63,257 nucleotides of DNA, filler included, from Reclinomonas americana ATCC 50394 (GCA_048213135.1; 18 parts of 18 records of this genome joined end to end with filler, not necessarily neighbours in it); one strand, 5' to 3'. Positions 5,201 through 60,563 are shown, counted from the whole stretch's first letter. Notes: generated by a model from the sequence alone, not told the origin. Program-made: numbers and translations.

Positions 5201-8200
5201 GCCGGTGGCGGCTTGTTTTGGAATGGTGGTGGCAATCCGTCCACGCTGGCTGCTGTATCGCAGTCCTTCGCTGCTGCTGGCGGATGGTCATCGTGGATGC
5301 AACAGCGGCAATTAAACGTCACTGGTAACCTGGCCAGTAACTCGCTGGCGAATGATGTCGGTAGCAGTTGCGTTGAATGTGATGAACACAAATCTCTTTA
5401 CTTGTCTTTTGAAGGCTCGTGCTCCACTGCAGCGCTGTACTCTGTGGTAATGGACTCGAGCAGTGATGTGCTGTATCCATCGCCACAGCAACCACGAGTT
5501 ATACAGGTGAACGCTACGGATGTCTTTGGTCAGTTCATGTCGACACTGGACAACACCCAGTTCCATGTCACTTGCTCCTCGGGTTGCAACCCAGCGGTTT
5601 GTCGTGGATAGTCATCTCTTCCTTCAGAATTGCGCCGCACTGACGAAACCCGCCCACTTATGCAGACAAGCTCTCTGTCGGAGTCGACCGTGAATGGAAC
5701 TGCGACATTCCAGTTGACGATTGTCAAGGGCGGGGCGAATCCAACCCAAGGCATTCGCGCGCATCTGCGCGACAGCAGTGATTCTGTGAGCATCAGCATC
5801 ACCACTGGCTCTGGTGGTGGCTTTGTCGGCCCGCAGCCTGAGCTCTCATTGCCACTGGCAGCCTGTCCTGCGGGATACCAGTATTCTACTGATATTGGCT
5901 GCCTGCAATGCCCCCCTGGGCGGTATGCGCTGCCGACGAGTGCGTTCAATCAGACGTGTTTGCCGTGTCCAGCCAATGCCGACTGCCTCGGCGGAACGCA
6001 AATGGAAGTGCAGTCGCAGTTCTGGACCTTCCCAGTTGATGCTGACTGGCAGATTGAGGGTGTCTTGTCCAAAGGGTGGACTGGCACGCTGGTTTCGCCA
6101 CCATCAACCGTGGTGGCATACCTCTGTCCCTATGATTACTGCGAACGCGGTGATGACGCTAGCCAAACTTTGGTTGCAGTCGACGCCGAATACTGCAGTG
6201 AGGAGACGAATCGCGCGTCAGACTCACCGCTGTGTGGAGCATGTAAGGTGGGTAACATGTCGGTGCAGCGAGGGGACGATGGTTTTCTCACAGGAATGTG
6301 CAGGAGGGCTACTCTCAGTGGCAGGGAGTGTGCATTCCGTGCGAGGCCACGTCCGGCTGGGCGCGCTTGTGGATATTTACAAAGATGCTTGCCTTTGTGC
6401 TATTCATCCACGTCTTCTTCCAGATTGATGTTGGCGGAGGTATGCAATCCGGGAGAAGAGACGTGAATTGCGAAAGTGAGATGGAAGAGATGGGAAACGC
6501 GTGGGCGATAAGAGCTATGGACTGGGAAGCGAGTACTAGAGGAAAGGAGACATGTGATGCGTGAGAGGAGCGATGAGGGAAGCCGCAAGTAGTGCAAGAC
6601 ACAGCGAGTGGGAGAGAGATGGTAACACGACGCAGTCGAAGGAGAGACAGCAAGAGAGAGGACATGAAGCAAGTTGCGGCAGCAGAACTCGAGGCAGTTG
6701 GAGAGGATTGCAAACAATGCTCCTTGTGAATGGAATAGACTCCCTCAAGACTGACCCACATGTGTATTCGCTTGTAGCATCTGCCGAAATCATCATCTTC
6801 ACGCTCCAGACCACCACGCTGCTCTTCTACCCCAACGTGGAACTCATCTCTCTCAACCGACTGCTCACCTTTGTCGTGCCGCGCATTCTGGATGTCGGCT
6901 GTCCGTTCAACACCGACGCTGTGGGTGACCTGTTGGCTCGTGTCGTATCGCCATTTGTGTCGCTGGCGATCTTGTGGGCCTGCTTCGGCCTCCACTGGCT
7001 GCTTGCAAGAGCATTGGTGCGCTGCATCCATCGTGGCTCGACGAGCGGACGATGGCCGCGATTCGTCGCCTGGTTCAGGCTTATCGCCTCGCCGCACCAC
7101 TACATTCTGACGACGGTTGTGCTGTTGCTGGGAGCGTACGAGGGCCTGGCGGAGACGGCGATTACGTTCTTCACGTGCACGGAGGTCGGCAACAGTCATG
7201 TTGTGCTCTTTTCACCCAGCATTGTGTGCTACGAGGGAGTGTTGCGTTTGATTTTGCAGTGAAGCGGCTGTCTCGTTCCGTGCTGATCAGCAAACGTGTG
7301 TGCGCAGGTGGCAGCGACTGATTCCGCTCTTCGCCGTGCTGCTGGCAGCCACTCTCAGTGTGCCAGTGTTGGTGGTGTGGTGGACCGTGCGCCTGCGTCG
7401 GCAAAAGAGACTGCATGACGAGAAGGTTGGTGGGATTGCAAGTAATCAGCGTGAGAAGCCATTGTCTCATTCTTGTGCGACAGACTCGGCGACGATTCGG
7501 TGTGTTGTACGATCACTTCCGGCCTCCGGTGGTGTGGTATCAAGGTGAGTGACACGAAGGGAAGGGTGGAAGAGAGGGAGAGATCACAATGCACGCGGGT
7601 AGGTTGATGCTTTTCTCCGATGTATTCTCTGCGTCACTCTTTCACGTGCAAGACGAGGTATTGCAATTGCTGGGTGCGCACAGCAAATCATGCCCAAAAG
7701 TTGCTGAGAGCGTGAGGTCCAGAGTGCATACGAACGCACTGATGCTTGATTGTTTGCTTCTCCGCTGTGCTGTCTGTGTGTCACTCTTACACATATTTGC
7801 ACTACGCACGGCAAATAGTTGCACTTGTGCCACTTATCATCGAAAAGAGTCTCGTGTACGCACCTCACTGAGGGACAAACAAGCACACAGTATGGGAATA
7901 CAAAGGACAACAATTGCCCCACCAGCAATATTACAGATGAAGGTCGTCACCGCTGCGCACCGAGCATTACTTCTCACTATTCCTTTTCGGTACATCAGGC
8001 TATCAACTCTGTCGACGTCTGATCATCCTCGCTGTGCTCTTCCCTCTCGCCGCCACGGGATCAATCGACATCCTCCCACTGGCGCTGTGGGTGGTGTGTG
8101 TCGCCTTCCTCGCGGTGCATCTCGTCGTTCGCGCCTATGAACATCTCTTGTACAATGTGCTGGAGGTGAGTCGTGCACTGTGAGTGCGGACACACATGCA

Positions 8201-8666
8201 TTCTCATTGTGTGTGTGCTTGGCAGGCCATCGGTCTCGGCTCCCTGGTTATCATCTCCACTGTGTTCACGTCACACGCATCTCCGCGCTTCAAGGTCGTC
8301 ACTTGCGTCGTGATACTCTCGCTGGTTGGTGCAGTGTTGGTGGGTCCAGTAGTGCTGTCTGGCATCAAGGCTGTGGTGGCATTTTGCCGACGTCGGCAGA
8401 GGCGAGGATCGGCAGCCTCTGATGGTGAGCTTCGACTGGGAGGCGGGGATTCTCGATGCACAGAACTCTCATTACCCTCTCTCTCTCACTGTATCCCTCC
8501 CCCTCACTCATGTGCCGCGTGCACAACAGAAATCGAGATGCAAGTGGGTGCAAGCCGTCATGTGCAAGTCACCAGCGATTCCACGCTCCATGCGCCGCTT
8601 TTGGAGGCTGCCGACGAGGATGACAACAGAACCGAACATCGCGGCATGGTCACAGGAGCTGTTTGA
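1..8666 (+). CDS. Large receptor-like membrane protein, 5' partial, about 25 exons: parallel beta-helix (Pmp/pectin-lyase-like GGG/GGA and FxxN repeats), Cys-rich CxxCPxG (GCC2/GCC3-like) region, then about 7-8 TM helices
   Basis: Exons join in frame at GT-AG: <1-66, 213-292, 451-517, 666-751, 927-993, 1143-1225, 1450-1513, 1661-1743, 1971-2056, 2224-2299, further short exons, a long exon from 3434 (contains ORF 3551-5611, NxAxxGGG repeats), then CPAGYQY..CLQCPPGRYA..CLPCPANADC, then TM exons with FGVLYDHFRPPVVWYQ and LYNVLE. Stop TGA at 8664-8666. Confidence 0.85.
1763..1862. other. Scaffold gap linker N44-TTAATTAATTAA-N44 (first of 17; others start at 10862, 12218, 16273, 17750, 23800, 29295, 32349, 34367, 37566, 39098, 41498, 44417, 46656, 47908, 57962, 60610)
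   Basis: Identical 100-nt spacer with stops in all six frames, usually placed inside intronic simple repeats. Confidence 0.98.
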
Positions 8667-8851: not shown

Positions 8852-11800
8852 CTACTCCTCCACCTCCCCCTCCTTCCCTCTCCCCCTCTCCTCCCCCCGC
8901 CTCCGCTTGCCCACCCCCGCCTCATCACTCTCCCCCGCCGCCACCGTCTTCTCCCCCCGCAGCCTCCGCGTCACCACGAACACACGCCGCCACATCGCTT
9001 CCTCCCCGCCCTCCTCCACCGACGACTGGACACGCGCAGCGACTCCACCTGCATCACGCAAGTCAGCCATCTAATCCCAACAACAACACAATCACATAGC
9101 ATTAGAAGTTGTCGAACCTCGGCAACACTGGCAGTCCACCAGCCATCGCACGCCAAACAGAACCAACTTTCGCAGCGAACCAGCTGCGCAGAAAACCACC
9201 AAGCGTGAGGAGCGAGCGGTGACAAAAGGCGACATCAACAACACAAACCTGACAACTCCATTCCGCCGCCACTCAACGCCGACGCCAGCGCGTTCAACAC
9301 AAGCGGTCCGCCGCTACACTGTTCCATCCCGCCCGCCGAGCCAACAACTCGCTGCTGCATCCCCGCACGGCGCACGCGCACAAGCGAGTCGCAGAGTTGC
9401 GCCGACTCCACCGGCTGCAGAGCGCGAGGCACGACGAGCAACGCCGTCACCAGCCGACGAGCACAGTCGCCACTTACGTCATTGCTGGTCTCCCCAATCG
9501 TGCACACTGCCACATGCAGCAGCTCCATAACCAGCGGACACGCCACAGCCGCGGCCTGACGCATCCGCAAGAGGCCAGTTGCGAGCGACATGGCGACCGT
9601 GGTGGGCATCAGTCCGGCCAGTCCACGCATGCGGTACGAGCACAGGACGCCGGCGATTGTGATAAGGCGGTGAGTGCGGTCCACAAGCCGCAGGCCGGGA
9701 GCAGCCGAGGTCTCCGTGCTGCTCTGGCAGTAAATTCCTGCGAGGAAGACAAGTGAGGAGAGCGGCCAATCAACGGTGGTAAGGAAACCAATGGTGAACG
9801 CAACGAGCAATTGATTCAGCCACCGACCACACTGCATGACGCAGTTGCACGGTAATGACGCCCGTTCTGAACGGCGCCAGCGGGATGCCCTTGGTCACAC
9901 ACTCGAGCCACAACAGAACCGCATCCAGTGCCTCCTCCTGGAACTCGGTTCGCACGGCGAGGAGTGGCGGCGAGACGACACTCGGGATCCAAGCTGATGC
10001 ACAAGAAATGAGAAAGAGGGTGGTAGGAGATTCACTTTTAACGAGACGCACCCAGAAGCCCGTGATGAGCTACGAGATCGGCGGCTGCCGAGGGAATGCG
10101 ACAGAGACCAGTGAAAATCTGCGCAGAGGGTCAATTAGTTTCAAAGTAGGAAGGGAGAGCAGAGTGGGAAGGGAAGAGAGGGAGAAGAGCGAGAGAGTGA
10201 GAGAGAGGAGGAGGAGAGGGAGATGAATGTGAGAATAAAAGAGAGCACAGCGAGAGGGGAGCAGAGCGATAGAGGAGCAGAGCGAGAGAGGAGCAGAGCG
10301 AGAGAGGAGCAGAGCGAGAGAGGAGCAGCGCGAGAGAGGAGCAGCGCGAGAGAGGAGCAGCGCGAGAGAGGAGCAGCGCGAGAGAGGAGCAGCGCGAGAG
10401 AGGAGCAGCGCGAGAGAGGAGCAGCGCGAGAGAGGAGCAGCGCGAGAGAGGAGCAGCGCGAGAGGGGAGCAGAGCGAGAGGGGAGCAGAGCGAGAGGGGA
10501 TCAGAGCGAGAGATGAGAAGAGCGAGAGAGGGAGCAGAGCGAGAGAGAGAAACAGAGAGAGAGAGAGAGAGCACAGCGAGAGGGGAGCAGAGCGACAGGG
10601 GAGCAGAGCGAGAGGGGAGCAGAGAGAGAGAGAGAGAACGGCAGATCGAAGAAGAGCACACCGAGAGAGCACACCGAGAGAGGGACAGAGCGAGAGAGGG
10701 AGCACACCGAGAAAGGGAGCAGCGCGAGGCAGGAGCAGCGCGAGGCAGGAGCAGCGCGAGGCAGGAGCAGCGCGAGGCAGGAGCAGCGCGAGGCAGGAGC
10801 AGCGCGAGGCAGGGCAGCGCGAGGCAGGAGCAGCGCGAGGCAGGAGCAGCGCGAGGCAGGCNNNNNNNNNNNNNNNNNNNNNNNNNNNNNNNNNNNNNNN
10901 NNNNNTTAATTAATTAANNNNNNNNNNNNNNNNNNNNNNNNNNNNNNNNNNNNNNNNNNNNGGAGCAGCGCGAGGCAGGCGCAGCGCGAGGCAGGAGCAG
11001 CGCGAGGCAGGAGCAGCGCGAGGCAGGCGCAGCGCGAGGCAGGAGCAGCGCGAGGCAGGAGCAGCGCGTGGGAGAAGCAGCGCGAGGGAAAAGCAGCGCG
11101 TGGGAGAACATCGAGAGAAGGGGCACAGCGAGAGAAAGCTCAGCGAGAGGGAACTCAGCGAGAGGGAGATCAGCGAGAAAAGAGACAGTTCGAGAGGGGA
11201 GCAGAGCGAGGGAGGGAGCAGAGCGAGGGAGGGAGCAGAGCGAGGGAGCAGCGAGAACGAATACAGCAGGAACGAAAGTGAATTAAATCAACAGAAGCAC
11301 GTAGTGACAAACGCAAGATGGCACACAGAAACAGAAACACAGGAAAAGCAGAGATACAGAGAACACAGAATCAGCAATGCAGAGACTTAATCATGAAGAT
11401 AGAAGAGGATTGAGAGGCCGTGGTTGTGAGAGCTACATCCAGCGCACACCCGCACCTGCAAGATCGCGCGGCACTCCGCCTCCTCCACAGACGAGTGCGA
11501 GTACAAGGTCATGAGCTGATGGAGGGCGTGACGACGTCGGAGCATGAGATAGTCCTGGAGCCACTGCAAGTGAGTTAAAGCTCATATAAAAAGGCGTGAG
11601 GACTCACGCAACAGCAGAGTGCAGGGAGCCGCCGGCCAGTAGCGACAGCACAAACTGACGATCGCGTTTCCAACTCAGATTCGTCGAGTGGAAAAGGTCT
11701 TGGAAAACAGGAAGAATGGTGTCGTCCAGGCACACGTCGCGAATGATGAATCGGGAAACGGCAGTAAACTGCGAGTGCGATGGCTGCAGAAGTACAGGGA

Positions 11801-13185: not shown

Positions 13186-13223
<38 letters not shown>

Positions 13224-16200
13224 TCCTTTCTATCTCTCTCTCTCATTTCTATCTCTCTCTCTCCTTTCTATCTCTCTCTCTCCTTTCTATCTCTCTCTCT
13301 CTCCTTTCTATCTCTCTCTCTCCTTTCTATCTCTCTCTCTCTCATTTCTATCTCTCTCTCTCCTTTCTATCTCTCTCTCTCTTTCTATCTCTCTCCCTCC
13401 TTTCTATCTCTCTGTCTGTCTCTCTCTCTCTCTCCCTCCTTTCTATCTCTCTCCTCCCTCTACCCTTTCTCCTGTCCCTCTTCCCTCTTCCCTCTTCCCC
13501 CTCTTCCCCCTTTCTTTCCCCTCTCCCCTCGCACAAATACCTCGAGCCGCCGGACCCCACGAATACGACGCATTCTGCACCATGTTGACGTGCTGTGCAT
13601 CAAACAGCTGGATCATGGAGAAGATGCACAGGTCTTCGTCGCCGAGAGATGCGCGGTACCCGGCACACAATTGCCGATGGAGGCCGCCAAATCTACAGCA
13701 GCGTCAGGAAATCTCGTGGAAACCAAAGTGCAGACGCAACAGACTCACCGACTTCGATCGTCGACTTGGAGGAGCAGGGCATGGACGCCACGAAGCACGG
13801 CAAGCCGCGGTGACAGTGACGGTGGAGTGTACCCACGATGGCTGACAAGAGACAGGTAAGAATAAGAAGCAGAGCAAAGGCGTGGACATCGTACACGCAG
13901 GACACACGACTCACCGATGATGCAGCGGCAGCACACGGCTCAACACACGACCAGACCAAGATGCACACTCAAAGAGAGCAAGCGGTGAGAACTCTCTCGC
14001 CGTGTCCTCCGTGCTGGCCATCGTAGCAGTGCTGAGCAACGAGCGCATCGCGTCCGACGACTCGCGAATGACCGTGTCAAGCACGCTCGAGGCCTGCTTG
14101 GGTGACAGGGAGGCCTGTGAACACGATTGTGAGTTAAGGGAAAGGCGAAACAACACGAATAATCTCTCTCATTCTTGTCTGCTAACTCTATTTGCTTGGT
14201 TATCTATTTCAGTTCTCATGGCACGTCCTCTCTCATCTGGCCCATGCCTTGTCTCTGTATTCTAGCTTTGCTCCTCTTTCCTCTCCTGTTCTCTTTCCTT
14301 CTCTCCTCTTCTCCTTACCACTCTCTCCTTTTTTTCTTTTTCTTGTCGCCTATTCTCTTCTCTGCTCTCCTCTGCTCTTCTCTCTTTCCTTTTCTTTCTC
14401 TTCAATTCATCATTCTTCTTCTCATCTCTCCTCGTCCCCTCCTTCTCTTTCTTTCCTTTGCTTCTCCTCCCATTGCCTTCTCTTCTATCCATCTCTTCTT
14501 TTCTTTCCTTCTCCTCTCCTCTCTTCTCCTCTCATCTCTTTTCTTCACTCCACTTCACTCCACTTCTCTCCTCTCGTTCTTCTCTTTTCTTCTTTCCTCA
14601 TCTCTTCTCTGCTTTTTTCTTCTCCTCTCGTCTCTTATCCTCTTCTCTTTTATTCTCTTCTCTTCTTTTCTTCTCACCTCTTCTCTTCTCTTGTATTCTC
14701 TTTTCCTCTCCTTCTCATCTCTCAACTCCTCTCTTCTCTACCTTTCTCTTCTGTTCTCTTCTCATCTCCTTCTCTTCTCTTGTTCTCATCCCTCGTCTTT
14801 TTTCATTCCTTCTCCTCTCTTCTTTCCTCTCCTCTGTCAGCTCCTCCCTTCTCTTCTCTTCTCTTCTCTTCTCTTCTCTTCTGTTCTCTTCTCATCTCCT
14901 TCTCTTCTCTCATCTTCTCTTCTATTTTATTCTCTTCTCATCTCTTCTATTTCTTGCCTCCCCTTCCCTCACCGTCCCCTCTCCTTCCCCCTCTCCCTCT
15001 CCCCCCTCTCCCTTTCCCTTTCCCTTCCCCCTACTCACCGACAACACGCTAAGCACTCGCACAAGCGCCACCCGCGTCGTCGTTGTCATTCGCGAAGAAG
15101 AGTGAGCCGCATCACGGCACAATTCCAGCAACAGCTGCGATGCAGCACGCTTGCAGTTCGCCACCGCGCCATCCAGTGAAATCGACTCGAACACATCGCG
15201 TGTTGCTAAGAGCGAAAGTGAGAAACTGCGTGATAGCACGACTATTAGGCGGAGACGACGCACCAATCCATTCGCCCAACAGCAACAGCGCATCGCGGTT
15301 GTCATCAGCATCGACGTGCAACTCGCCCTTGCTCCCAACAAGAGAGATAAAGTCGGCGACCAACTGTGCAGCCAGGCGCTCCGCCTGACCCGGTTCGAGA
15401 TGACCAGAATTGAGCACGGCCGTGCCGAGGACGGCCCAGTGCGTTTGCAACATATGACTGCACGAAACAGCAACGCTGTTGAGTATGCGCGCTACTCACC
15501 AAGATCAAACAACACTTACCCGTGGTCATGCAAGTGAGGAGCGAGCGTGTGGGACCACAGCTTTTTCCGGAGACGAGCATCCGCTTCGCCACGGTTACCG
15601 AGCATACCAGCGACCAGCGACAAGATGCATGATTCGTGCCAGCTTCTGCGAATGAGAGAAAGGTGAGAAGGAGACGTTGTGAAAGAGGAGCGAGAGAGGG
15701 AGCAGGGCGACAGGGAGGAGCAGAGCGACAACAGGAGCAGAGCGACAAGAGGAGCACAGCGACAAGAGGAGCACAGCGACAAGAGGAGCACAGCGACAAG
15801 AGGAGCACAGCGACAAGAGGAGCACAGCGACAAGAGGAGCACAGCGACAAGAGGAGCACAGCGACAAGAGGAGCACAGCGACAAGAGGAGCACAGCGACA
15901 AGAGGAGCACAGCGACAAGAGGAGCACAGCGACAACAGGAGCACAGCGACAACAGGAGCACAGCGACAACAGGAGCACAGCGACAACAGGAGCACAGCGA
16001 CAACAGGAGCACAGCGACAACAGGAGCACAGCGACAACAGGAGCACAGCGACAACAGGAGCACAGCGACAACAGGAGCACAGCGACAACAGGAGCACAGC
16101 GACAACAGGAGCACAGCGACAACAGGAGCACAGCGACAAGGAGAGCAGCGCGACAACAGGAGCACAGCGACAACAGGAGCACAGCGACAAGGAGAGCAGC

Positions 16201-17888
16201 GCGACAAGGAGAGCAGGGCGACAACAGGAGCAGAGCGACAACAGGAGCAGAGCGACAACAGGAGCAGAGCGANNNNNNNNNNNNNNNNNNNNNNNNNNNN
16301 NNNNNNNNNNNNNNNNTTAATTAATTAANNNNNNNNNNNNNNNNNNNNNNNNNNNNNNNNNNNNNNNNNNNNGAGTGGGGGGGAGACGGAGTGGGGGGAG
16401 ATGCAGTGAGGGGACGCAGTGGGGGGAGACGGAAGTGGGGGGAGACGGAAGTGGGGGGAGACGCGAGTGGGGGGAGACGGAAGTGGGGCGAGGCAGGAAG
16501 CAGAACCGAGGAAAAACTAGTTGCCTGCTTAAATTCTCAGCAAATTACCTGCATCAGGGGCCAGCGAAACATACGTGGCCTGCAACGCATCGGCCATGTC
16601 GTACAGTCCACGCTGCACGTACTCCACACTGCGTTCGAACAACTGCTCAGCTTGCGGGAACTCCTGCAGTGCGTGCGACCAGTACAGCCGTTCGGACGGA
16701 GATGCTGCGCCAAAGAGTCAGTGTGCGAGTCATCACCTCAAATCACTAGGATTTTGCTCACCGGCGAGAACTGGCAAATGCGCCAGCACGTGCGCAAGAA
16801 GCAGCGCACTCTGCTTTCGGACGCACAACGGCAGCGCAGAGTTGCGCAGCGGTTCCAGGCACACGTGGAGGAGCGGGGCGAGCCCTGTTGACCGACTGAT
16901 GAGGAAAAGCAACCAAATAGCACCCCGCGACCCTCCCGTCTCGCCGCGCAACATTTCTTCTGGCGCGCCGACAACACCAGCGTTGAGTCCAAGAACGACA
17001 GCAGCTTGATGTGCAGCGCGCTGCCGGGCGCCGCCGCCGGAAGGGCCAGCAGATCGGCCACCACGCGGAACGGAGGAGTGGAACCCACAAGCTGTTCGCA
17101 CAAAAGTCAGCTCGCGCTGCGCATAAGCAATTTCTTCACAGGAAAGCAACGCACCTCCGGCGCACAAGCATAGTAGAGTGCGAGGACATCCACCCACGCC
17201 ACCGCTGCCACCGAGCTGGAGTCACCAGCAGCCACCTCAGCCACCATGGCCGGACGCAGCGCCAGCACCACCTGCACGTCCGGCAGATAGTTGGCCACCA
17301 GCGATGCCAGATGCTCGCTGCTGATCGACCCCGACGCTTGCTGCAGTCGACGCAGAATGGTGGCCACCAGCAGGAGCGAGTGGTGGCGCACCAGGCGATG
17401 CTGCGACTGGAGCAGCCAGGAGACCTGTGCACGCGTGGCGGACCGCGAAATGTGCTCTGGCAGTGCCGCGGCGAGGACGTCCGCCGGCAGGCGGTTGAGC
17501 AGCTGAATGTAGAGCGACAGCGCGCTGAATGTGGCAAACGATGGCTTGCCATCAAAGGAAAAGGGGAAGCCGGCGAGGTACCTGCAGACAGGGAAAGGGG
17601 GTGAGAAGGGGGGTGAGAGGGAGAGAGGGAGAGGGAGAGGGAGAGGGAGAGGGAGAGGGAGAGGGAGAGGGAGGAGGGAGGAGGGAGAGGGAGGAGGGAG
17701 GAGGGAGGAGGGAGGAGGGAGGAGAGGAGAGAGGGAGGAGGGAGGAGGGNNNNNNNNNNNNNNNNNNNNNNNNNNNNNNNNNNNNNNNNNNNNTTAATTA
17801 ATTAANNNNNNNNNNNNNNNNNNNNNNNNNNNNNNNNNNNNNNNNNNNNCTCTTTCTCTCTCTCTCTGTCTCTCACTCTCGCATTCTG

Positions 17889-17919: not shown

Positions 17920-20900
17920 CTCTCTCACTCACTCACTCACTCACTCACTCTCTCTTTTCTCTCTCTTTCTCTGTCTCCCTCTCTCTCCCCTCACTCTCCT
18001 TCTCTTCCATCTCTCTCTTTTTCTCTCTCTCTCTAACACACACACACACACTCACTTCCCTTTTCCCATACTCTGTTTCCTCCTCTCATTTTGCATTCCA
18101 ACGCAACTCGACCAAAAACTCCGGCGGCGACATGTCGACCATGTGCAACAGCAGAGCCCGCTGGCGCGTGTTCACCAACGCCGCCGACAGAGAGCGTGCC
18201 ACGGCAACCAGCACGCGGTTCACGGTGGCGGCCAGAGCGGCCACGCTGTTCTCGTTGAAGGTGCCAGCGCCTTCCTCGACCAGCTGCTCGGCGTGCGGGG
18301 TGTACTCGAGGCCAGAGACGGGGCGGCAGAGAATGTCCATGAGGAAGGTGTGTGCCAGCAGCTCGCTCTCCTCCGAGTCGCGGGAGTACATTTGGATGAA
18401 CTGCGGGGGGAGGGGAAAGGGGGAGGCAGAGGGGGAGGATGAGGGAAAGGCAAAGGAGGAGGGGAAGGCATGGGGAAGGGAGGGGGAAGGGCAATGCGAG
18501 AAAAAAAGGAAGGATAAAGGAGTGAAGGCATACCGGAAGGGAGGATGAAGAGATCGCAACAGGGAAGGGATGGAGCGTACGGTCAAATAGAAGGGAGGAT
18601 GCAGCGGAAGCGAACGGGAAGGGAGGATGCAGGGAGGAAGAAGGGAACGGAAGATGAAGGGGAATGTCAAGAGAGAAAAACGGAAACAGAGGGAAGGCAA
18701 CAGAGTGAGGGACGATGAAGGTGATGGCAACAGAGAAAGGCGGATAGAGGGGAAGGCGAAGGAGAAGGAGAAGGGAGGATGGAGGGGAAGGCGAAAGAGA
18801 AGGGAGAATGGACGGAGAGGAAATTAAGAGAGAGAGAGAGAGGGAAAGACTGAGAAAGAGACTGAGAGAGACTGAAAGAATGAGAGAGAATGAGGGAAAG
18901 AGAGAGACTGAGAGAGTGAGAGGCAAGTAAACGGATGAGGTTGGCTGGCGCTAGAGGAGAACAACCGGGGGAAAGGAAGAAATGGTCAAGCGGGACAGAA
19001 AACGCGAGAAACGAAGAATGCGACAAGAACTCTTGCGTCTCTCCTCTGAACCAAATGGTTGCTCTTTTCGCGAGAGAGCGAGAGAGAGAGAGAGACTGAG
19101 AGAGAACAGAGAAGGGGGGAGACTGAGACAGAAACACAGTGAGACTGAGGGAGAGACTGAGAGAGAGACTGAGAGAGAGACTGAGAGAGAGACTGAGAGA
19201 GAGAGAGACTGAGAGAGAGACTGAGAGAGACTGAGAGAGGTGTGAGCATGGGATGAGGTTGGACGGCGTTAGAGGAGAACAAACGGAGGAATGAGTGGAT
19301 GCAATGAGGAACGAAGAGAGGACTCTCTAGCTTCTCACTTCCCTTCTCCGCCCTTCTTCGCCTCCCTGCACTCACCACCTTGGCCGTCACTTGATCAAAG
19401 AAACGAGTCTTGCTGCGGCGGGAGATGCGCGTGTTGCGGAACACACGCTTGCGCAGCGCCGTGATGAGCAGTGCTTGCACCTGCGCACAAATTCGTGAGA
19501 AGGCTGTGGCACTCTGGAGCCGCATCACCGAGCACCCCCACCTTGGGCGTGTTCATCCACAACCCGCGAATGGCAGAGCGCAAAAACGACTTTTCCTCCA
19601 GCATGGCATTGACGAGCTCGCGATCTGCCACACGCAGCGTGTGCGCGGCGATCTCCACGTACAGGTTGCGGTAGACTGCAACTGAAAGTGAGCAAGGCAA
19701 ATCAACGGGGTCTACGAAAATGCCCAGCACACCTGCGACGCCCTTGACTTTGCCGTCGGGGTGCCGACTGTGCCACACGAACGGCTTGAAGGTGAAATTG
19801 AACTTGTGGAAGAACTCGCGCGCGGCAAACGGGCCCTGTCGCACACAGTCGCGCAGCAGTTCCATGGAAACGCGCACCAGCATCGCCGTCTGCGAGCCGA
19901 GGTGCTTGGTGATGGTCTTCATGTGATAGCGGAACACCTAGAGCGGGGCGGGAAAGGGAGGAAGAAGGGTGAGCGGGGTGGGTGGAAGGGACGAAGGGAA
20001 TGAGGACGCACCAGCAGCGCGAGTTCCTGCCCGAACCGCCGCTCGGCGGTCTCGGTGCTCCGGTGGAGGGCGCGCAGGAGGGCCGAGAGAAGGGAGAGGA
20101 TGGCGGTGGTGAGGGCCGTGGAGTCTTGTCCTTGCTGCGAAACAAATAAAGAAGGGGGAGAAGGCGTGAGGGAAAGCAGGAAAAGAGAGATCGATAGCGG
20201 GAAAGGATAACAGCACATAAAGCAGGGGAAGTGAGAGAAGGATGAAATAGACGGTCGGGAACAACAGAGAAAGAGATCTCGACAAAAGGAAAGGAGGGAG
20301 ATGTATGAACGGAAGGGGCGTGGAAAGGACAAGAGAGAGGCAGCGATGAGGGAGGGAAAAGTGAAAGAGAAAGAGGGAAAGAGGGAGAGGAGAATAGGAA
20401 CGGAGAAGACGGAGAGCAGAGGCGAAGAAAAAGAGAGACAGATGGAAAGATTGAAAGAGATGAGGCGGCAGAGAGAGGGCCAGCAAAAAGAGGGAGGGTG
20501 TGAGGAGTCGATCGGGTGAGGAGCGGAAGCAAGAGGGCAGACAGAAGAGGGAAAAGAGAAGAGACGTATCGCAAACAATTTGTCTGGAAAGTGACTGATG
20601 GAAGAGATCACGCCAATTAATCAGGAAACATCGACTCCTGAAGAACGAGTGCATCCCACAAACACGTCTTCTACGGTTAACAACTTCGTGTCTATGAGAT
20701 TGAAGGAGTTCTGTTCGCACAGTTACTCTTTCATCTTCCCCTCTTCCCTCTTCTCTCCCCTTCCCATCCTTCACTCACCCTGGTGGCCTTGGACCAGAAC
20801 CCCAGCACCTCCTTGCCGGCCCTCTCCGTCACCACGTACTCGCGAAGGAAGGCCGCCACTTGCAGTTCCGTGCCGGAGCCGGAGGCAGAGGCCCCACCGG

Positions 20901-23933: not shown

Positions 23934-26900
23934 GAGAGATAGAGGTGAGAGAATGCATGATTGCTTACTTGCAGGAACGCTCGATCATTCAGACTCGGTC
24001 TTATTCGCACTCGGTGTCTCTCTCTTCTCTTCTCTCTCAGAGAAGCAGGAGGGAGGGATAATGAGAGGAATGCTCGATCATTCAGACTCAGTGTCATTCT
24101 CATTCGCCCATTCTCTCTCTCTGTTTCGCTCTCCCAGTCTCCTTTCTTTCTTTTGTCGCTCTCTATATCTCTCTTTTCTCCTCTTCTCTCTGTTTTCTCC
24201 TCTCTTCTCTCTCTTCTCCTCTCTCTCTCTCAGAGAGGCAGGGAAGGGAGTGAAGGTGACAGCATGATTGCTTGCAGGCAGGAATGCTCGATCATTCAGA
24301 CTCAGTGTCATTCTCATTCGCACTCGTTGTCTCTGTTTGTCTCTCTCTCTCTCTCTCAGAGAGGCAGGGAAGTGAGAGAATGTATGAGAGCATCACTGCA
24401 GGCGCCGATGCTTTAGCATTCAGGCTCCGTCTCTCGGTCTCGCATTGTCTTTCTCTCTTTGTTTTTCTCTCAGGGAGTCAGGGGAGGGAGAGAATGTGTC
24501 GCTGCAGGCGCTGATGCTCAATCGGACTCAGTCTTTCCCACCATCTCTCGGCCTCATCGTCTCTTTGTGGCTCTGAGGCTCGCAGTCCACCTCTCGTTGT
24601 CTCTCTGTTTGTCGCTCTCTTTCTCTCTCTCTCTCTCTTAGAGGCAGGGATGTGATAGAATGCATCACTGCAGGCGCTGATGCACATTCGGACTCACCTC
24701 TCGTATCAATCGCCCTGCCCTCTCTCTCAGCTTCACACTCACTGGTTCCGTTTCTCTGGCTTTCTGTGTCTGTGTCTCTGTGTCTCTCCGTCTCCGCCAC
24801 TTTGTCTCCGCGTCCCCATGTCTCCGTCTTGACCTTTCCACTTCCTTCCTCTTCCTCGATGTCATCGAATGGTCAACCTTGCCCTTCTCTCCTTTCGCTC
24901 TGCCTCTGCGCTGCGTGCCACCGACCTCGCAAATCATCCATGCCATTCTCCTCCTGTTCTACCTTTCACTCTCTCCTTTTCCCTCTCCCTCTCCCTCCCC
25001 CTTCGCCCTCTTCTGCCCTTTTCCTCCACCCACCCACCTTTCCCTCTCTGCAGTGGTCCGACGCCGAACACATCCTCCGCGACACCCTCGCCACCATGGG
25101 TGAGCGCGCCTGCGTCGATCCCGAAACCTCACGCGCCGCCCTCGGCTTCCGCAACAATCTCGGCGTCACCCTGATGCGCCAGAACAAGTTGGGTGCTGCA
25201 ATAACTCATTGTTGTTTCTCACCCCTGTTGCTTCTCCTCATTCCGTTCATTGTCCTCCTCCGACTCTGTTATCTTCATTGATTTCCTGGTATCCACTCTT
25301 CCTCTTTCCTTCTCCCATCGTCCTCCTCCGACTCAGTTATTTTCCTTGCTTTCCTGTTATCCATTCTTCCTCTTCCTTCTCCCATCGTCCTCCTCCGACT
25401 CTATTATCTTCATTGCTTTCCTCTTATCCACTGATCCTCTTTCCTTCTCCCATCGTCCTCCTCCGACTCTGTTATCATCCTTGCTTTCCTGTTATCCACT
25501 GATCCTCTTTCCTTCTCCCATCGTCCTCCTCCGACTCGGTTATCTGCATTGATTTCCTGTTATCCACTGATCCTCTTTCCTTCTCCCATCGTCCTCCTCC
25601 GACTCGGTTATCTTCATTGCTTTCCTGTTATCCACTGATCCTCTTTTCTTCTCCCATCGTCCTCCTCCGACTCGGTTATCTGCATTGCTTTCCTGTTATC
25701 CACTGTTAGTCTTTCCTTTTTCGATTGCCCAATTCCCATGACCCGAGAACGTGGTGGCCGCCGCCACACAACTCGCATAGCCTGTTGCACCGTAATAGTT
25801 GACGATCCATTCGCATGTCTTGCACGTTCCGTGGCCGGAGCATGTCGCAGTGGGACTGCAGTTGCAGATGGCATTGTCGTCGCCCGTGCACAGACACGTC
25901 CCATCACTCTGGCACGTTCCGTTGCCGGAGCAGGTGGTGGTCGGACTGCAGTTGCAGCTGGCATTGGTGTAGTCGCCCGCGCGGTCTTCTTTCCTTTCCT
26001 GTTATCCGCACTCCATCCATTCTCCCTCTTTCCTTCTCCCATTATCCTCATCCGACCCTTTATCTTCATTGTTTTCCTGTGTTCACTCTTCCTCTTTCCT
26101 TCCCCCATTGCCCTCTTCCGACACCTCATCTTCTTTCCGTTCCTGTTATCTGCACTCCATCCACTTTTTCTCTTTCCCTCTCCATTATCCTCATCCCTTC
26201 CCCCTTCTCCCCCTTCCTCCCCCTTCCCTTCCCTTACCATCTCCCTTCCCCTCCCTTCCCAGCCTCGCCGACGCCGAAACCACCCTCCTCTCCGTCATCA
26301 CCGCCGCCCGCTCGCACCACCCCGAGCTCATGTCCATCTCCCAAAGCAAGCTGGCCGAGGCCTACGCCTCCGCCGGCCGCCGCCAAGACGCCGAGGCCAC
26401 CCTGCGCGAGGCGCTCTCCTCGCTGGACCGCCACGGCGGCTCGGCACGCGACCGCTTCTACATTCGCCTCAACATCGGCACCCTCGCGCAAGAGGACGGG
26501 CGGTACGAGGACGCCGCGCGCATGTACGCCGAGGCCGGCCGCATCGCCGCGCAGTCACTGGGACCCGGTCATCGTGACACGAGTTGCGTGTGCTCCTCAA
26601 TGCTGTCTCTCTCTCCCTCTCCCTCACTTCCCCTTTTCTACGCAGTCCGCGCGCGCTCCGAACTGGTGGACCTGCTGCTGATGGTGGGCGACGGCAAAGA
26701 GGCCCTTCGAGTGTGTCGCGAGGACATGATTCCGCACGTGGACCAAAAGTCGGCCGAGGGCATGAGTGTGCGCTTCCTCTTTGCGCGCGTCCTGTCGCGC
26801 CTCGGCCAGTTCTCCGGCGCCGAGGAGATTCTCGTGCCGCTGGCCGACGAGATGCGCAGCTCGCAACATCCCCGCGCCATTCAGGTGCTGGAGCAGCTCG

Positions 26901-48035: not shown

Positions 48036-48091
<56 letters not shown>

Positions 48092-51000
48092 CTCTATCTC
48101 TCTCTCCCTCCTCTCTCTCTCTCTCGCCTTCTCTCCCGCTTGCTCACTAGTGCAGAACTTGTCTGTGATCAATTTAACACCCTCTCTTTCCTCACCTCAC
48201 TCTCTCTCCACCCTTCGCCCCTCCCTTCCCCCTTCTCCCCCTCCACAGCCCCTCCAGCTCCGGCGAGCGCAAATCCCGCCGCGAACAAATGATGGCCGAG
48301 CGCCGCAAGTTCCTCGCCGAAATGCGCCGCAAGAAAGCCACTGCCGCCGCCGCCGCCTCCGACGACCCCTTCTCCGCCGCCGTACTCCAAGAGCGCGCCC
48401 CCGAGATCTGCAGTGAGTTCGTTCGCATTGAGGATCACTACGAGCTGCGCGGGGAGCTGGGTCGCGGACAATTCGGCATTGTGTATGATGGGATGGAGCT
48501 GAAGACCGGGAACTCGTATGCTGTGAAGGTGGGAAAGAGGGGAAAGAGGGGAAGGAGGGGGAGGGGAGGGGAGGGAGTGAAGGGGAAAGGGGGAGGGAGG
48601 GGAGGAGAACGAGGAGAACGAGGGGGAGTCAATTTCTTTTGCGACAAGTCGAGCTGTCTGTCACTGCCTCTCGCTGTGCGTCCCGCTCTGTGCCATGATC
48701 GCAACTGACTCTCTCATTGCGACTCACTCTTTGCTCACTACGATTCTCTTTTCTTTCCCCGTGCTTCGCTTTTTTCTCGCCACGACTCATTTTGATTCCC
48801 TCGTTCTTGTTGCGGCTCACTCTGCGTCTCGCTCGGTTCTCTTATCGCATCTCACTCGTGTTACATCACGACTCTCGCTTGTCTCACCACGACTCATTCT
48901 TGTTGATCACGTTGCACTATTATCGCAGCTCACTCTTTCTCTTTCAGCGTCCCACCCTTTCACACTTTGCGACTCTCACAGTCACACTGCCTCTCAGTCG
49001 GCGTATCACTCTGCTCCATCGTCGCAGCTCACTCTTATATCCTCATGTCTCACTCGTATCGCACAAGGACTCACTCTTATCTCTCAACGACTAACTCTTA
49101 TCCCCTCACGACTCACTCTTCTCTCATTACAACTCGCTCTTATCTTTCTGCATTCTTCCTCGGTATCTTACTGCGTCTTGTTCATCATGTTTCTGCCTCG
49201 TGCACTTTGGGCTTTTTAGCGACTATCTCACTGCAGCCTGTCTCACATGCTCCACTACTCACAACGGTGACCAACTCCGTCTTTTGTCACCCAGTCTATT
49301 TGCACGCAGTTTCTCCTTCCCGCCTTCCATTTATTCTCTCGTTGCCTTTCACTCGAGCACCGCCTCCCATCTTCTGTCCCTCACTCACTCTCTCTTGGAT
49401 TGACTCTCTGGCTTTCTCGCTACTTCGTTCTGCCAGTCACTCTGAGTCCCACAATGTCACTCACAGTTACTGTATTTCTGTCGCACTGTCAATCGTGCAC
49501 TCTGTTACATTCCTCTTTTCCCACCCTGTCTCACTTTCCTCCACCCTTCCCCCCCACGAAGGTGCTGTCAAAACGCGTCTGCAGCCCCCAAATGGACGCC
49601 GCCATCAAATCCATGCGCGAGGAATTCGGCATCCTCCGCGAACTCAATCACCCGGGCGTGGTGGGCCTGCACGAGCTGCTCGAGTCGGAGATCAACTTTT
49701 ATGTTGCGCGCACCGTATAGTCCTCTCTCTCTTTCTCACCCATCGCTCACCCTCCTCTCCTTTCGCAGCTGGTAATGGAGAAAATCAGCGGTGGCGAGTT
49801 GTGGGACCGCATTGTGGAGCACGGCGGCTACAATGAGCGCATCGCCGCTGGCCTGTTCCGCCAGCTGGTCGAGTGCATTCAGTATCTGCACGCCAAGGGC
49901 ATCTGTCACCGCGATCTGAAGCCGCAGAACATTTTGGTGCAGGAGGTTTGTGTGGGGGAAGGGGTTGAGGGAGAGAGAAAGGGCAGGAAGGGGGAGAGCG
50001 GAGAGTCAAAGACTTCGATGTCTTTATCAAAGTTCAAACCTCTCGATTGCACTCTCAAGTGTCGCTCTCCCTCTCTCTCTTTGACGACCTCTGCGCCTTC
50101 TGGACGCTCTCTCAATCGATTTCTCGCTCACTCACTCGCCTTCTCGATCACTCACTCGCCTTCTCGATCACTCACTCGCTTTCTCGCTTGCACACTCGCT
50201 TTCTCGCTCACTCACTCGCCTTCTCGCTTGCTCTCTCGCCTTCTCGCGTGCTCTCTCCCTTCTCGCTCACTCACTCGCTTTCTCACTTGCTCTCTCGCCT
50301 TTTCGCTCACTCACTTGCCGTCTCGCTCACTCACTTGCCGTCTCGCTCACTCACTTGCCTTCTCGCTCACTCTCGCTTTCTCGCTTTCTCACTCACTCTC
50401 TCACTCACTCTCTCGCCTTCTCGCTCACTCACTCGCCTTGCTCACTCTCTCGCCTTCTTGCTCACTCACTCGCTTTCTTGCTCACTCACTCGCTTTCTTG
50501 CTCACTCACTCGCCTTCTCGCTCACTCACTCGCCTTCTTGCTCACTCCGTCGCCTTCTCGCTCACTCCCTCGCTTTCTCGCTCACTCTCTCGCCTCCTCG
50601 CTTGCTCACTCGCTTTCTCGCTCACTCTCTCGCTTTCTCGCTCACTCACTCGCTTTCTTGCTCACTCACTCGCTTTCTTGCTCACTCACTCGCCTTCTCG
50701 CTCACTCACTCGCCTTCTCGCTCACTCTCTCGCTTTCTCGCTTTCTCACTCACTCTCTCACTCACTCACTCGCCTTCTTGCTCACTCACTCGCCTTCTTG
50801 CTCACTCACTCGCCTTCTCGCTCACTCACTCGCCTTCTCGCTCACTCACTCGCCTTCTCGCTCACTCACTTGCCTTCTCGCTCACTCACTCGCCTTCTTG
50901 CTCACTCCGTCGCCTTCTCGCTCACTCTCTCGCCTCCTCGCTTGCTCACTCGCTTTCTCGCTCACTCTCTCGCTTTCTCGCTTGCTCTCTCGCTTTCTCG

Positions 51001-51785
51001 CTCACTCACTCGCCTTTTCCTCTCTCGTTCTCGTTCGTTCTCCCACTCTTTCTTGATCACTGTTCTCTTTCTCACTCGCTCACTCGCTGTATCTTGCCGC
51101 CACTCACTGCCATTTCTCTCGAATCACTCGTCATCAATTGCTTTGCTCTCCCCTTCTTTCTGATCGTATCCCTTCCCCGTCATCGCAGGCCGTCAAAGAC
51201 CTGGAAAACGCACACATCAAGATCACCGACTTTGGCGTGAGCACGTTGTTGCCAGAGTCCGGCGCCTCCATGCGGGAAATGACGGGCACTCCGCAGGTGC
51301 TTGTTGCATGATCGTGTCCTTCCGTGATGTGACAAAGCTCATTTCAGTTGCCCTGCAGTACATGGCCCCGGAGGTCGTCCGCCTGGGCAAGTACGACGAG
51401 GAAGTGAATTTGGGAGACTATGACGAGACCATGCGCGGCGTGTATCATCTCTGTGTGGATATGTGGTGCGTATCTGCCGAAGGAGGAATGCGGAGAGAGT
51501 GTTGCTGATTGTGAGAACAGGAGCGCCGGCTGCATTTTGTACGTGCTGTTGTGTGGATTCCTGCCGTTTGATGATCGTGCGTTGTCATCTCTTGTCTTTG
51601 TGGGGTTGCGTCATGGCATTCACTCTCATTGTCTGACAGCCGACGAGTCGCGACTGGTGGAGAAGATCTGCACGGTGAGCTTCGCCGCAGAACCTGGCAG
51701 GAAACATCATCGCTCTCATTGATTCTTACTCTCCTGTCAGACTGACTGCCTCACTCCGTCTCACTCTCAGCGGAGCGTTGTACAT

Positions 51786-51831
<46 letters not shown>

Positions 51832-58063: not shown

Positions 58064-58157
<94 letters not shown>

Positions 58158-58415: not shown

Positions 58416-60563
58416 ATGGCCGCGCGTTTGCAGTACTTGACCGCTGAGAATGGCGCCGACGTCTACCCGGTAGAGGTGTGCGCGTTCCCACGTGCAGCCG
58501 TCGTTTGTCTGCAACTTTTTGTCCTATTTCTGTCTCCTCACTGCCCATGTTCACCAACTCGCTGCCTTCTGTCTCTCCCCTTGTTCCCCATCGCTCACTC
58601 TCCGTGCATCCGCATTCGCACACTCTTTTTACCTCGGAATTCCTCCATGTCCCCAAAATAGACACTCATACCCCGGTTTTCATTCTTTTCTCTGTTTTGC
58701 AGGTTGGCTCGCTCAAGGAGGGCCAGCACGTGGTACTGAGTGGCAAGCCGTGCAAGATCACCGATCTGAAGATTTCGGCTCCCGGCAAGCACGGCTGTGC
58801 CAAGGCGCACATTGTTGCGTTGCTGACCAAAAGAAGGCTTCCCTAGTCTCCCTCCCTGGATTCTTTCTACTCTTGTGTACCTGCTGGGCTCCACCGTCTC
58901 CTTCTGAGACACTCATTCTCTTTCTCCTCCTCTCCTTCTTGCATTCTCACACCCTTTGTCTTTTTCTGCTCTTTAGCCCTCTTCCATGTCTTGTGCTCGG
59001 GAAGCACCGTCTCTCACCCCCTTCATCCGTATTTTTCTCGTGCGCTCTTCAACGACTTGTGCACCTGCTGGGCTCCGCCGTCTCCTCCTTGCGCCCTCAC
59101 TCCCTTCATCCTTCCCCCTGGAACTCTCACTTGTTCGGGAAGCACCGTCTCCTTCTCGCCTCTCACTCCCTTCATCCATTCTCTTTGCATTCTCATGCAT
59201 GTGTCCCTCCTCCTTCCCCGGACGCACCGCCTCCTTCTCGCTCTTTCGCTTCCTTCACTTACCTTTCAAGCCTGCTGTTCCTGATCACTCCACAGTTGGC
59301 TTCTCGCCTTTTCACTCCTTTCACCCTCTGGATTTCTTGTCTCCTGCACTGTTGAATACCTTCTGTCCCTGCTCACTCCCCGGACGTCAACGCAGCGTAT
59401 CCTTATCACGCTCTCGCCCCTTTCAAATCCCATCTGCTGATGCTCTCCAACTCGACAATCTCCTTCTCGCCCTAACGTCCTTTACTCACCTTCAAGCCTC
59501 CTGCTCAGTCTTGCTCCCCGGATGCTCACTGCAGTGTCTCCATGGCATGCACTCACTCCCCTTGCATCCCTTGTGCTGCACTCAATGCCTTCTGTTCCCC
59601 CCTGATGCTCTCCAACTCAACTATCTCCTTCTCACCCTCACGTCCTTCACTTCAATTGTTCAAGCCTTCTGCTCCTTATCTCTTCGCCTGACACACCGTC
59701 TTTCGCTCATTCTCTCGACTCCTTCACATCCCTCTCCTGTACTCAAACACCCTCACTCTCCCGGATGCTCTCCAGCTCCACCGTCTCCCTCTCGCCCTCT
59801 CACGTCCTTCGTTTGACTCTGCTCTTTCTCACTCCCCAGAGCATCTCTTGTCACGCTCTCACTCCCTTCGCACTTCTATTATTCTCAATGCCCACCATCT
59901 CTTTCTCGCCCTCTACACCCTTCTGTCCCTACTCACTTCCCCCACTTGCACAGGTGGCCTACGGCGTCTTCGACAGCAAGCGCCTGGAGATGGTGGCCCC
60001 GTTGCGTCACCTCCTCCTCCACTCCTCCTCCTTCTCTCCTCCTCCGCATCACTCACCTCCCTTCCCCTCCTCTCCCGTAACGGCAGGTGCGACAACCGCA
60101 TTGAGCAGCCGGTGGTGGAGAAGAACGAGTACACGCTGATGGACGTCACCGACGATGACTTCCTGGTGCTACTCACCGCCGACGGCAAGGTGAAGGAGGA
60201 CATGCAGATGCCGGTGGAGCCGGCGCTGCGGCAGCGCATTGAATCGAATTGGACTGAGGGGAAGGTAAGCGCGAAGGGGAAGGACAGGGGGGGAAGGGGG
60301 AGGGAGGGAAAGGGGGGAGAACGGGGAGGGAGGGAAGAGTTGCTGCACGTTTTCGAAAGAAAAGAGCACGTCAGTGCGATCTTCATTGCGGGAGCGGATC
60401 AACTCGCCCAAGTACGATTCTTATCAACAGAAGGGAAGGGGGAGGGAGGGAGGAAGAGTTGCTGCACTTCTCCTAAGGAAAAGAGCACGTCAGAGCGTTC
60501 TTCATTGCGAGAGCGGATCATCTCGCCCAAGTACGATTCTTGATCACTTACTCTCTCTCTCCT

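Follow-up and report, generated by a model that had tools for sequence, protein, structure and literature searches.

In animals and fungi, the G that ends the exon (position -1) and the G at position +5 of the intron compensate for one another at the 5' splice site, or donor, in a graded trade-off within a single register. Roca and Krainer reportedly showed in 2009 that atypical human 5' splice sites are recognized by U1 small nuclear RNA (snRNA) in a shifted register, and Roca et al. are said to have described a bulge register of U1 pairing in 2012. A later study shows shifted, bulged and asymmetric-loop U1 registers in human cells, with the validated non-canonical registers totalling 1.5% of 201,541 human donors and the bulge at +2/+3 amounting to 54-68 human sites (Tan et al. 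2016, Table 3, PMC4856993). For whole lineages, Roy & Bowser (2022, 10.1101/2022.06.08.495308) pair the Entamoeba donor GUUUGU(U) with U1 AACAAAC and the Mastigamoeba donor GUGCGC with U1 ACGUAC, and report a standard U1 alongside the GYGCGY donors of Mamiellales and the +4C donors of Thecamonas. A 2026 tunicate paper mentions a shifted register merely as a possibility (PMC13326754). The known cases of offset pairing between U1 and a 5' splice site are rare exceptions in mammals, and in the lineage-wide donor shifts described so far one consensus replaces another. Here we analyse a 63,257-nt window, meaning the whole stretch of DNA under study, from Reclinomonas americana ATCC 50394 (GCA_048213135.1), an intron-rich eukaryote, in which a second and frequent class of donors, reading GTTGCGT, occurs in the same genes as donors of the GTGAGT kind and follows exons that do not end in G. 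No GUUGCGU donor class is described among the matches listed for literature on the motif or on shifted registers, subscription journals and supplements lying outside these.

A sequence-only reading of the window had proposed this class from 14 sites. Its central observation is confirmed and is stronger than earlier stated, the motif being a strict heptamer whose use depends almost entirely on the base that ends the exon. Two donor classes are apparent (a slash marks the exon-intron boundary): exons ending in G use G/GT(G or T)NG(T), as in GTGAGT, GTGCGT, GTGTGT and GTTTGT, and /GTTGCGT is the usual donor after an exon whose final base is A, C or T. All 14 proposed sites read GTTGCG on the strand given for them, 11 continue as GTTGCGT (the exceptions at +7 being A at 27385 and C at 35210 and 49703), and the base before GT is A, T or C in every case, never G. 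They fall in seven genes, not the six that had been counted.

The motif is over-represented in the window. GTTGCG occurs 52 times on the two strands, more often than in any of 100 dinucleotide-preserving shuffles (30.83 +/- 5.64, highest count 43), and the excess is about the size of the proposed donor list. The heptamer GTTGCGT is present in 16 copies on the two strands, 11 of which are proposed donors and one a weak candidate at 5367; the other four comprise two intronic copies (13740 and 51605), one copy deep in an intron of an alcohol dehydrogenase (ADH) gene and one antisense to an exon of a TPR gene. A T at +7 is found at 12 of 16 modelled GTTGCG donors versus 4 of the 36 other GTTGCG copies (Fisher P = 1.1e-5), and only one to two of the 19 heptamers of the form GTTG(A/T/G)GT lie at a modelled donor.

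Introns were predicted on both strands with a purpose-built hidden-Markov gene finder having three-periodic coding states, three non-coding compositions and phase-keeping introns that may open at any GT and close at any AG. It was trained first on about 3 kb of Pfam-matched exon sequence and afterwards on its own predictions; one run under mild penalties gave 268 introns and was discarded, and the stricter runs converged. When splice signals were left unmodelled altogether, GTTGCG ranked second among donor hexamers, opening 4 of the 57 complete introns. Once an acceptor had been learned, still with no donor model beyond GT, it ranked first, opening 6 of 63 introns where its 52 copies among 6726 GT sites would predict 0.49 (binomial P = 9.9e-6); GTTTGT (5) and GTGAGT (4) came next. 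Runs with a self-trained first-order donor model placed it at 8/63 and 11/93, and the share of one intron in five put forward earlier is, by these three blind sets, a little high.

The same predictions bear on the last exon base. At penalty -6, none of 11 GTTGCG donors followed a G versus 30 of 43 GTG-class donors (Fisher P = 2.6e-5), which, with the 6/63 share in the donor-model-free run, upholds the claim of a frequent donor class tied to exons lacking G at -1. The stricter set at penalty -7.5 gave 0/8 versus 17/26 (P = 0.0027), and among the junctions checked individually the figures were 0/12 versus 26/28 for standard donors (P = 1.6e-8). Because the donor model in the penalized runs links only adjacent positions, an association with -1 could not have been learned by it. 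Conversely, 12 of the 14 checked donors without a G at -1 are GTTGCG, the other two being C/GTGCGT at 51577 and T/GTTTGTC at 35035. The contrast holds against other donors: compared with the 36 non-donor copies of GTTGCG, six of which follow a G, the absence of G at -1 is not significant (P = 0.16).

Twelve of the 14 proposed junctions (7241, 11612, 26583, 27103, 27385, 35210, 35334, 36635, 38105, 49703, 58814 and 60001) are supported by reading frame together with collinearity to a profile, a repeat or a paralogue, 38105 being among them on phase only. The remaining two are 9804, which is phase-consistent only, and 18107, which lies next to an assembly gap. Each site is named below by the first base of its intron, so that minus-strand donors carry their highest coordinate.

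The most complete case is a GDP-fucose transporter (SLC35C1-like) gene at 34.7-38.3 kb (minus strand), for which a profile was built from about 60 of 120 homologues among the matches listed. When three GTTGCG donors and one GTTTGT donor are used and a 13-nt micro-exon is included, the spliced model aligns as one block to profile positions 33-215 with 270.9 bits. The donor A/GTTGCGC at 35204..35210 opens a 72-nt intron (35139-35210) whose retention lowers the score to 262.9 bits and brings in 24 extra residues and a stop, and C/GTTGCGT at 35328..35334 opens a 59-nt intron (35276-35334) whose removal gives the gap-free profile alignment feyPLA-VTWYQ; both were found without a donor model. As alternatives to 35334, the GT 5 nt downstream or retention of the 59-nt intron breaks the frame and brings in seven stops. 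The donor A/GTTGCGT at 36629..36635 opens a 1254-nt intron (35382-36635) after the micro-exon at 36636-36648, whose residues VFLNK match the conserved vflnk of the profile and raise the score from 246.9 to 270.9 bits; a cut after FLNK had been argued for earlier from conserved residues. The micro-exon itself, worth 24 bits, lies between introns of 60 and 1254 nt. The donor T/GTTGCGT at 38099..38105 closes the first coding exon, which starts with the ATG at 38248 and stays open to this point; it leaves phase 2, matching the exon that follows (36757). An in-phase T/GTTGGCC 9 nt downstream is equally compatible, the N-terminus being unconserved. Another donor of this gene, T/GTTTGTC at 35029..35035 (intron 34970-35035), is an exception to the rule on -1: the profile alignment lalnnlCLqyvev spans the junction, and with G at +5 and T at +6 the site belongs to the standard register.

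An IF5A-like gene on the plus strand (58.4-60.3 kb, 58416-60264) supplies two further sites, both found by the signal-free gene finder. T/GTTGCGT at 58814..58820 opens a 1140-nt phase-0 intron (58814-59953), and the preceding exon 2 matches both the IF5A-like N-terminal profile (positions 8-44) and archaeal aIF5A (12-48) through its last residue, in agreement with the cut after AHI that had been proposed. C/GTTGCGT at 60001..60007 opens an 86-nt phase-2 intron (60001-60086); the 16-residue exon 3 and the first eight residues of exon 4 span the distance from the N-domain to the OB-fold profile, which begins at residue 9 of exon 4. This arithmetic of exons and profiles fits only cuts at 58814 and 60001, and, when the sequence is read by eye, cutting at the GT 5 nt downstream leads into unrelated frames or to a stop. 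The gene has features of its own: its hypusine loop (ISAPGKHGCAKAHI) is closer to archaeal aIF5A than to eukaryotic eIF5A, its best match among solved structures is Methanocaldococcus jannaschii aIF5A (E 8e-11, versus about 2e-6 for the human protein), and it may be a divergent second paralogue.

In the TPR gene (25-31 kb, plus strand) the criterion is the spacing of the repeat, which was compared with what we take to be the TPR_12 consensus; the product is open and the 41-42-residue spacing holds across all three junctions. A/GTTGCGT at 26583..26589 opens a 63-nt segment (26583-26645) that is in frame and free of stops; it was found without a donor model, its removal leaves the repeat unit LGPGHRDT-IRARSELV whole, and it is predicted to be spliced rather than retained. 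A/GTTGCGT at 27103..27109 opens a 71-nt phase-2 intron (27103-27173), and splicing there keeps the 41-residue distance between repeat glycines 220 and 261; the in-phase alternative G/GTGCAA at 27115 would insert four residues. A/GTTGCGA at 27385..27391 opens an 898-nt phase-0 intron (27385-28282), giving the open join AQR-LAEVSLALEESMFG with the repeat retained, and the gene finder's own choice of 27340 deletes a helix. In a CaMK-like protein kinase gene (48.2-53.1 kb, plus strand), T/GTTGCGC at 49703..49709 opens a 66-nt phase-0 intron (49703-49768). The exon ending INFY reaches position 74 of the Pkinase profile and the next, beginning LVME, starts at 75, which places the cut at FY/LVME as had been argued. 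The donor chosen there by the gene finder, 49715, adds VART, duplicates Pkinase position 75 and was rejected.

Two membrane-protein genes provide a comparison between paralogues. In gene H (2349-8700, plus strand), T/GTTGCGT at 7241..7247 opens a 67-nt phase-2 intron (7241-7307), found by the gene finder with self-trained signals. Its paralogue, gene J (60710-63257, minus strand), has an intron at the same position and in the same phase with the donor G/GTTTGGG at 62331..62337, and the two products are collinear across it without insertions or deletions (SIVCYEGV-WQRLIPLF versus TIQCFSQR-WLQLIPLY). At this one intron position, gene H, whose exon ends in T, reads GT/GTTGCGT, and gene J, whose exon ends in G, reads CG/GTTTGGG in the standard register.

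Most of the smaller cases are on the minus strand. In an URB1/Npa1-like gene (11.5-20 kb), T/GTTGCGT at 11606..11612 opens a 49-nt phase-0 intron (11564-11612); the upstream exon bears a NopRA1 Pfam match and the phase-0 donor joins a phase-0 acceptor. The perfect GTGAGT 5 nt downstream was considered as the cut and is out of frame, with an in-frame TGA following. The same gene holds a site absent from the earlier list, T/GTTGCGC at 16946..16952 (intron 16705-16952, 248 nt), which was predicted by the signal-free and donor-model-free runs and whose phase 1 joins a 2-nt exon start. At the proposed A/GTTGCGT donor 18101..18107, also in this gene, the acceptor lies beyond the gap at 17750-17849 and the gene finder picked the GT 5 nt downstream. 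In a gene without a known family (8.7-10 kb), C/GTTGCGT at 9798..9804 opens a 67-nt phase-1 intron (9738-9804); its phase matches the 2-nt start of the 163-codon next exon, and it was recovered with self-trained signals. The weak candidate A/GTTGCGT at 5367..5373 (plus strand) heads a 48-nt in-frame segment (5367-5414) that was predicted only with the self-trained donor model, has an open frame throughout and ends in a poor acceptor, GAAG; it is probably not an intron.

The GTTGCGT introns begin with GT, end with AG and, once removed, leave an open frame that matches homologues collinearly; from this protein-level and statistical evidence they appear to be ordinary U2-type GT-AG introns, and their acceptors (YGCAG/CAG) are like those of the remaining introns. 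U12-type introns have the donor /RTATCCTT with a matching branch-site box, and are ruled out by donors reading GTTGCGT. An artefact, in which either the true cuts fall at other GTs close by or GTGCGT has systematically gained a T in sequencing or assembly, could draw on the facts that the evidence for the junctions is protein-level and statistical, that an additional intronic T leaves reading frames intact, that a second GT lies 5 nt downstream at 11 of the 14 sites, and that the assembly is fragmented into 18 contigs with 17 linkers and simple-repeat contig ends. We consider it very improbable: a gene finder given no donor sequence still arrives at the motif, cutting at the GT 5 nt downstream destroys the reading frame in the SLC35C1-like, URB1-like and IF5A-like genes, and a homopolymer overcall, already judged unlikely in the sequence-only reading, would hit GTGAGT, the commonest donor, equally, yet only one of seven GTTGAGT copies is a donor, and it would have no reason to track the -1 base. 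Descent is another conceivable source of uniformity, since identical first seven bases in many introns of unrelated genes might mark mobile, introner-type intron copies with a common 5' end. This origin is scarcely credible, as conservation ends past +8 (+9 T6 G4 C3 A3; +10 G7 A4 C4 T1), lengths span 49-1254 nt, the 3' ends resemble those of all other introns, and insertions would not track the -1 base; even taken together with an artefact it remains improbable.

The variants and exceptions that had been noted read as described, namely GTTGGGT at +25188, GTTGAGT at +38385, GTTTCG at +31035 and GTTGCA at +3362 among the variants, and A/GTGAGT at 994 and C/GTGCGT at 51577 among the exceptions. 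T/GTTGAGT at 38385..38391 (plus strand) was predicted without a donor model and is the only predicted donor among seven GTTGAGT copies; A/GTTTCGG at 31035..31041 (plus strand), at the end of the long TPR exon, was predicted in all gene-finder runs. The exception C/GTGCGT at 51577..51583 (intron 51577-51638, plus strand), in the kinase gene, stands as a phase-1 donor joining a 2-nt exon start, with the product PFDD-P-DESRLVEKICT. Two intronic copies of the heptamer were rejected as donors: G/GTTGCGT at 51605-51611 (plus strand), 28 nt downstream of 51577, is out of phase, and GTTGCGT at 13734..13740 (minus strand) has a standard donor, G/GTGAGT at 13748, 8 nt upstream. The copies at 13740 and 51605 could be chance occurrences, decoys or U1 helper sites. 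Donors reading GTTTGT or GTTGGT are preceded by G about half the time and have G at +5, which makes them members of the standard register.

The exon side of the new class is informative in a further respect. Its -1 position (A7 T6 C3 G0) resembles -2 of standard donors (A26 T14 G4 C2), and its -2 position (C7 G4 A3 T2) resembles their -3 (C18 G16 A9 T3); as the compositions match at an offset of one base, this side resembles that of standard donors moved along by a single position. Read from -1, standard donors present G-G-U-G-N-G-U, and read from +1 the new class presents G-U-U-G-C-G-U, so that one position differs. The description of the class as a common donor with an extra T is too simple, in that GTTG-N-G donors are specific for C at +5 (16 of 18) and standard GTG-N-G donors have A10 C5 T2 at the corresponding place (Fisher P = 4.9e-4).

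How such sites might be paired was examined with ViennaRNA duplexfold on 12-nt sites and 4096 trial U1 5' ends. Against the canonical U1 5' end (AUACUUACCUG) the GTTGCG class pairs poorly in every register, with a mean energy of -0.98 kcal/mol versus -7.45 for standard donors; since this pairing is negligible, the U1 5' end would have to be altered or a second U1 present. The earlier suggestion of a shifted or bulged U1 register therefore stands in part and is plausible in outline: the class is real and its exon side offset, and an ordinary U1 is insufficient. An ACGUAC-type end like that of Mastigamoeba gives means of -5.36 (GTTGCG class) and -7.70 kcal/mol (standard), with the +1G pairing U1 position 9 in 10 of 16 sites. 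The end AUACGCACCUG gives -7.36 and -9.09 kcal/mol, being the top of all 4096 for the standard class and best or second-best for both classes jointly. An end exactly complementary to GUUGCGU, AUACGCAACUG, gives -11.6 for the GTTGCG class and -5.05 kcal/mol for standard donors.

We tentatively favour a single U1 that serves both classes, with the new class shifted by one base. To this U1 both would present one seven-base frame, G-N-U-G-N-G-U, whose first G closes the exon in the standard class and opens the intron in the second. In the latter U1 would sit one base downstream, with +1G paired to C9 and exon positions -1 and -2 to U10 and G11, so that a C-A-G clamp on U1 C9-U10-G11 would consist either of three exon bases or of two exon bases and the first G of the intron. 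Cleavage would occur at the first GU of the frame through U6 and U5, as in other eukaryotes. The 5' end of this U1 would not be the canonical ACUUACC and would carry a G opposite the invariant C; the best single-U1 fit, ACGCACC, is the complement of GGUGCGU and constitutes a prediction for the U1 gene. An Rfam search of the window for snRNAs returned none at the gathering threshold and none at E<=1. Since the shifted class is already mismatched at frame position 2, it would tolerate no other mismatch, which would account for the rigid GTTGCGT consensus. More broadly, a two-register (or two-U1) code, in which the last exon base selects the intron start and GUUGCGU is the default after every non-G exon end, seems possible, and we hold it with some reserve.

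A second arrangement dispenses with the shift, a canonical-type U1 reading standard donors and a variant ending ACGCAAC reading GTTGCGT in the normal register. The strict consensus of the second class (C at +5 in 16/18 versus A10 C5 T2), the use of GTTGCGT alone as a donor and not GTTG(A/T/G)GT, and the -11.6 kcal/mol of the complementary 5' end, the best of 4096 for this class, all speak for it, and it covers both the strictness for C in the second class and the lack of a preference for C in the standard one. Variant U1 genes are expressed in humans. For Physarum, Roy & Bowser (2022, 10.1101/2022.06.08.495308) name standard as well as modified U1 variants. Two U1 snRNAs nevertheless give no account of the absence of G before GTTGCG donors or of an exon side slid by one base, and we think this arrangement unlikely.

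Less likely again is a bulged U at +2/+3 in a normal-register helix with U1 and then U6, or recognition by a protein or by U6/U5 with little role for U1. GTTGCGT does equal GTGCGT with one U added, and +2/+3 registers have been validated in human cells, at only 54-68 of 201,541 sites (Tan et al. 2016, PMC4856993); copies of GTTGCGT 8 and 28 nt downstream of two standard donors might likewise mark a binding element. A bulged helix should favour G at -1, which would contribute one more pair, yet 0 of 16 sites have it, and duplexfold with canonical U1 gives no stable bulged structure (the mean being that already cited for the class). Tested indirectly, the sites show neither the useful -1 G pair nor the normal-register helix that would place them in the +2/+3 bulge group, and two intronic copies are too few for an enhancer argument.

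Several points weigh against the single shifted U1 and against the strength of the comparison on which it draws. Both the register and the predicted U1 5' end are matters that we purely infer, and nearest-neighbour energies ignore pseudouridines and contacts with U1C and Prp8. A G in U1 opposite +4 predicts a preference of standard donors for GTGCGT, and the actual distribution, A10 C5 T2, is fitted at least as well by a canonical U1 with a separate RNA for the second class. The sample is one window of 63 kb, its list of checked junctions is enriched for genes with sites claimed earlier, and the standard-donor list was taken partly from the gene finder's own predictions. That gene finder, of only moderate precision, matched exactly 5-8 of the 12 checked GTTGCG donors and 13-19 of the 28 checked standard donors, a similar recovery in both classes and hence without bias for the new one.

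Set beside the described systems, the shifted register of human U1 is the nearest, with U1 proposed to lie one base downstream and +1G to pair with C9, the cut remaining at GU, no G at +5 and a canonical-register match that looks hopeless. It differs in rarity, all validated non-canonical registers together making up 1.5% of human donors and this one heptamer 10-13% of blind-predicted donors here, and in that canonical U1 pairing is negligible in the window, so that an altered U1 would be required. The +2/+3 bulge is alike in that the donor is a normal donor plus one U after GU; the predicted human sites follow no -1 rule, and here G at -1 is found in none of 16. In Archamoebae, lineage-specific donors with U at +3 or C of the +4 type are tied to a change in the U1 5' end, a change of the same kind as the predicted ACGCACC or ACGUAC-type end; one consensus prevails there, and here two classes in the same genes are chosen by the last exon base. 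The Entamoeba-like GTTTGT donors of the window sit in the standard register. With Mamiellales and Thecamonas the window shares a GC-rich protist background and a preference for G at +3 followed by C at +4, and no offset second class is reported for them. The animal and fungal compensation between -1G and +5G resembles the present system in that the last exon base affects what is needed on the intron side, and differs in that neither -1G nor +5G is present in the GTTGCG class and the change from one class to the other is close to all-or-none.

If the reading is correct, two donor classes one base apart in the same genes would form a natural system in which to study the coupling of U1 binding and cleavage, and would bear on the co-evolution of snRNAs and splice sites. 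Should one U1 serve both, the clamp would set U1 binding and the cut would be set separately as the first GU, and a one-base uncoupling of binding from cleavage would be routine at a tenth to a fifth of introns. Gene finders trained on one donor matrix only will model a sizeable fraction of this host's introns wrongly, and this may be one reason why its proteins are absent from the protein-collection matches. When that collection was queried with exons of the SLC35C1-like gene, the IF5A-like gene and gene H, no transcript-derived protein from the host organism was returned. The SLC35C1-like exon found 293 relatives, the best at about 49-54% identity and scattered across fungi, Amoebozoa and others; exon 4 of the IF5A-like gene and the multi-transmembrane (multi-TM) exon of gene H found none.

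The window consists of 18 contigs chained by 17 linkers of the form N44-TTAATTAATTAA-N44, placed at 17 positions within 1763-60709 (for example 1763-1862) and carrying stops in all six frames; because genes continue in order through them, the linkers represent assembly gaps. Contig ends commonly lie in (CT)n, (GA)n or (CA)n repeats, and the G+C content of the window is 51-57%. Genes were identified by Pfam on stop-to-stop open reading frames and by later homology work. Besides those described above, they include a fatty-acid desaturase gene (41.6-44.9 kb, plus strand) and the Zn-dependent ADH gene (53.5-57.2 kb, minus strand). Most introns are CT-rich on the sense strand, for example 58814-59953 and 35382-36635, and some introns of the TPR gene are purine-rich; the pyrimidine-rich introns give rise to large GC and AT skews whose sign flips with gene orientation. 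Long hairpins of inverted GA-rich/CT-rich low-complexity DNA occur at 21480-21630, 22326-22415, 28127-28228, 38397-38542 and 41649-41800. They draw sub-threshold matches to plant and animal microRNA models (22-39 bits versus gathering scores of 47-100) and are probably not genes.

The paralogous genes H (about 2-8.7 kb) and J (60.7-63.2 kb) encode Gly-rich, PMP-like beta-helix repeats followed by a multi-TM C-terminal module, the 725-residue repeat exon giving only a weak Chlam_PMP lead in the Protein Atlas. Most intron positions are common to both, and gene H has an extra intron at 7426-7483 with the donor G/GTTGGT. Upstream, a unit of about 470 nt is repeated in tandem over 139-2223 of the window (plus strand), each copy carrying the same intron-like pieces, CAG/GTGTGTTCT...TTTTAG/GT at 293, 752, 1226 and 2057 and TGT/GTATATGAG at 589 and 1066. 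The copies may be an array of repeated exons that belongs to gene H, at its 5' end.

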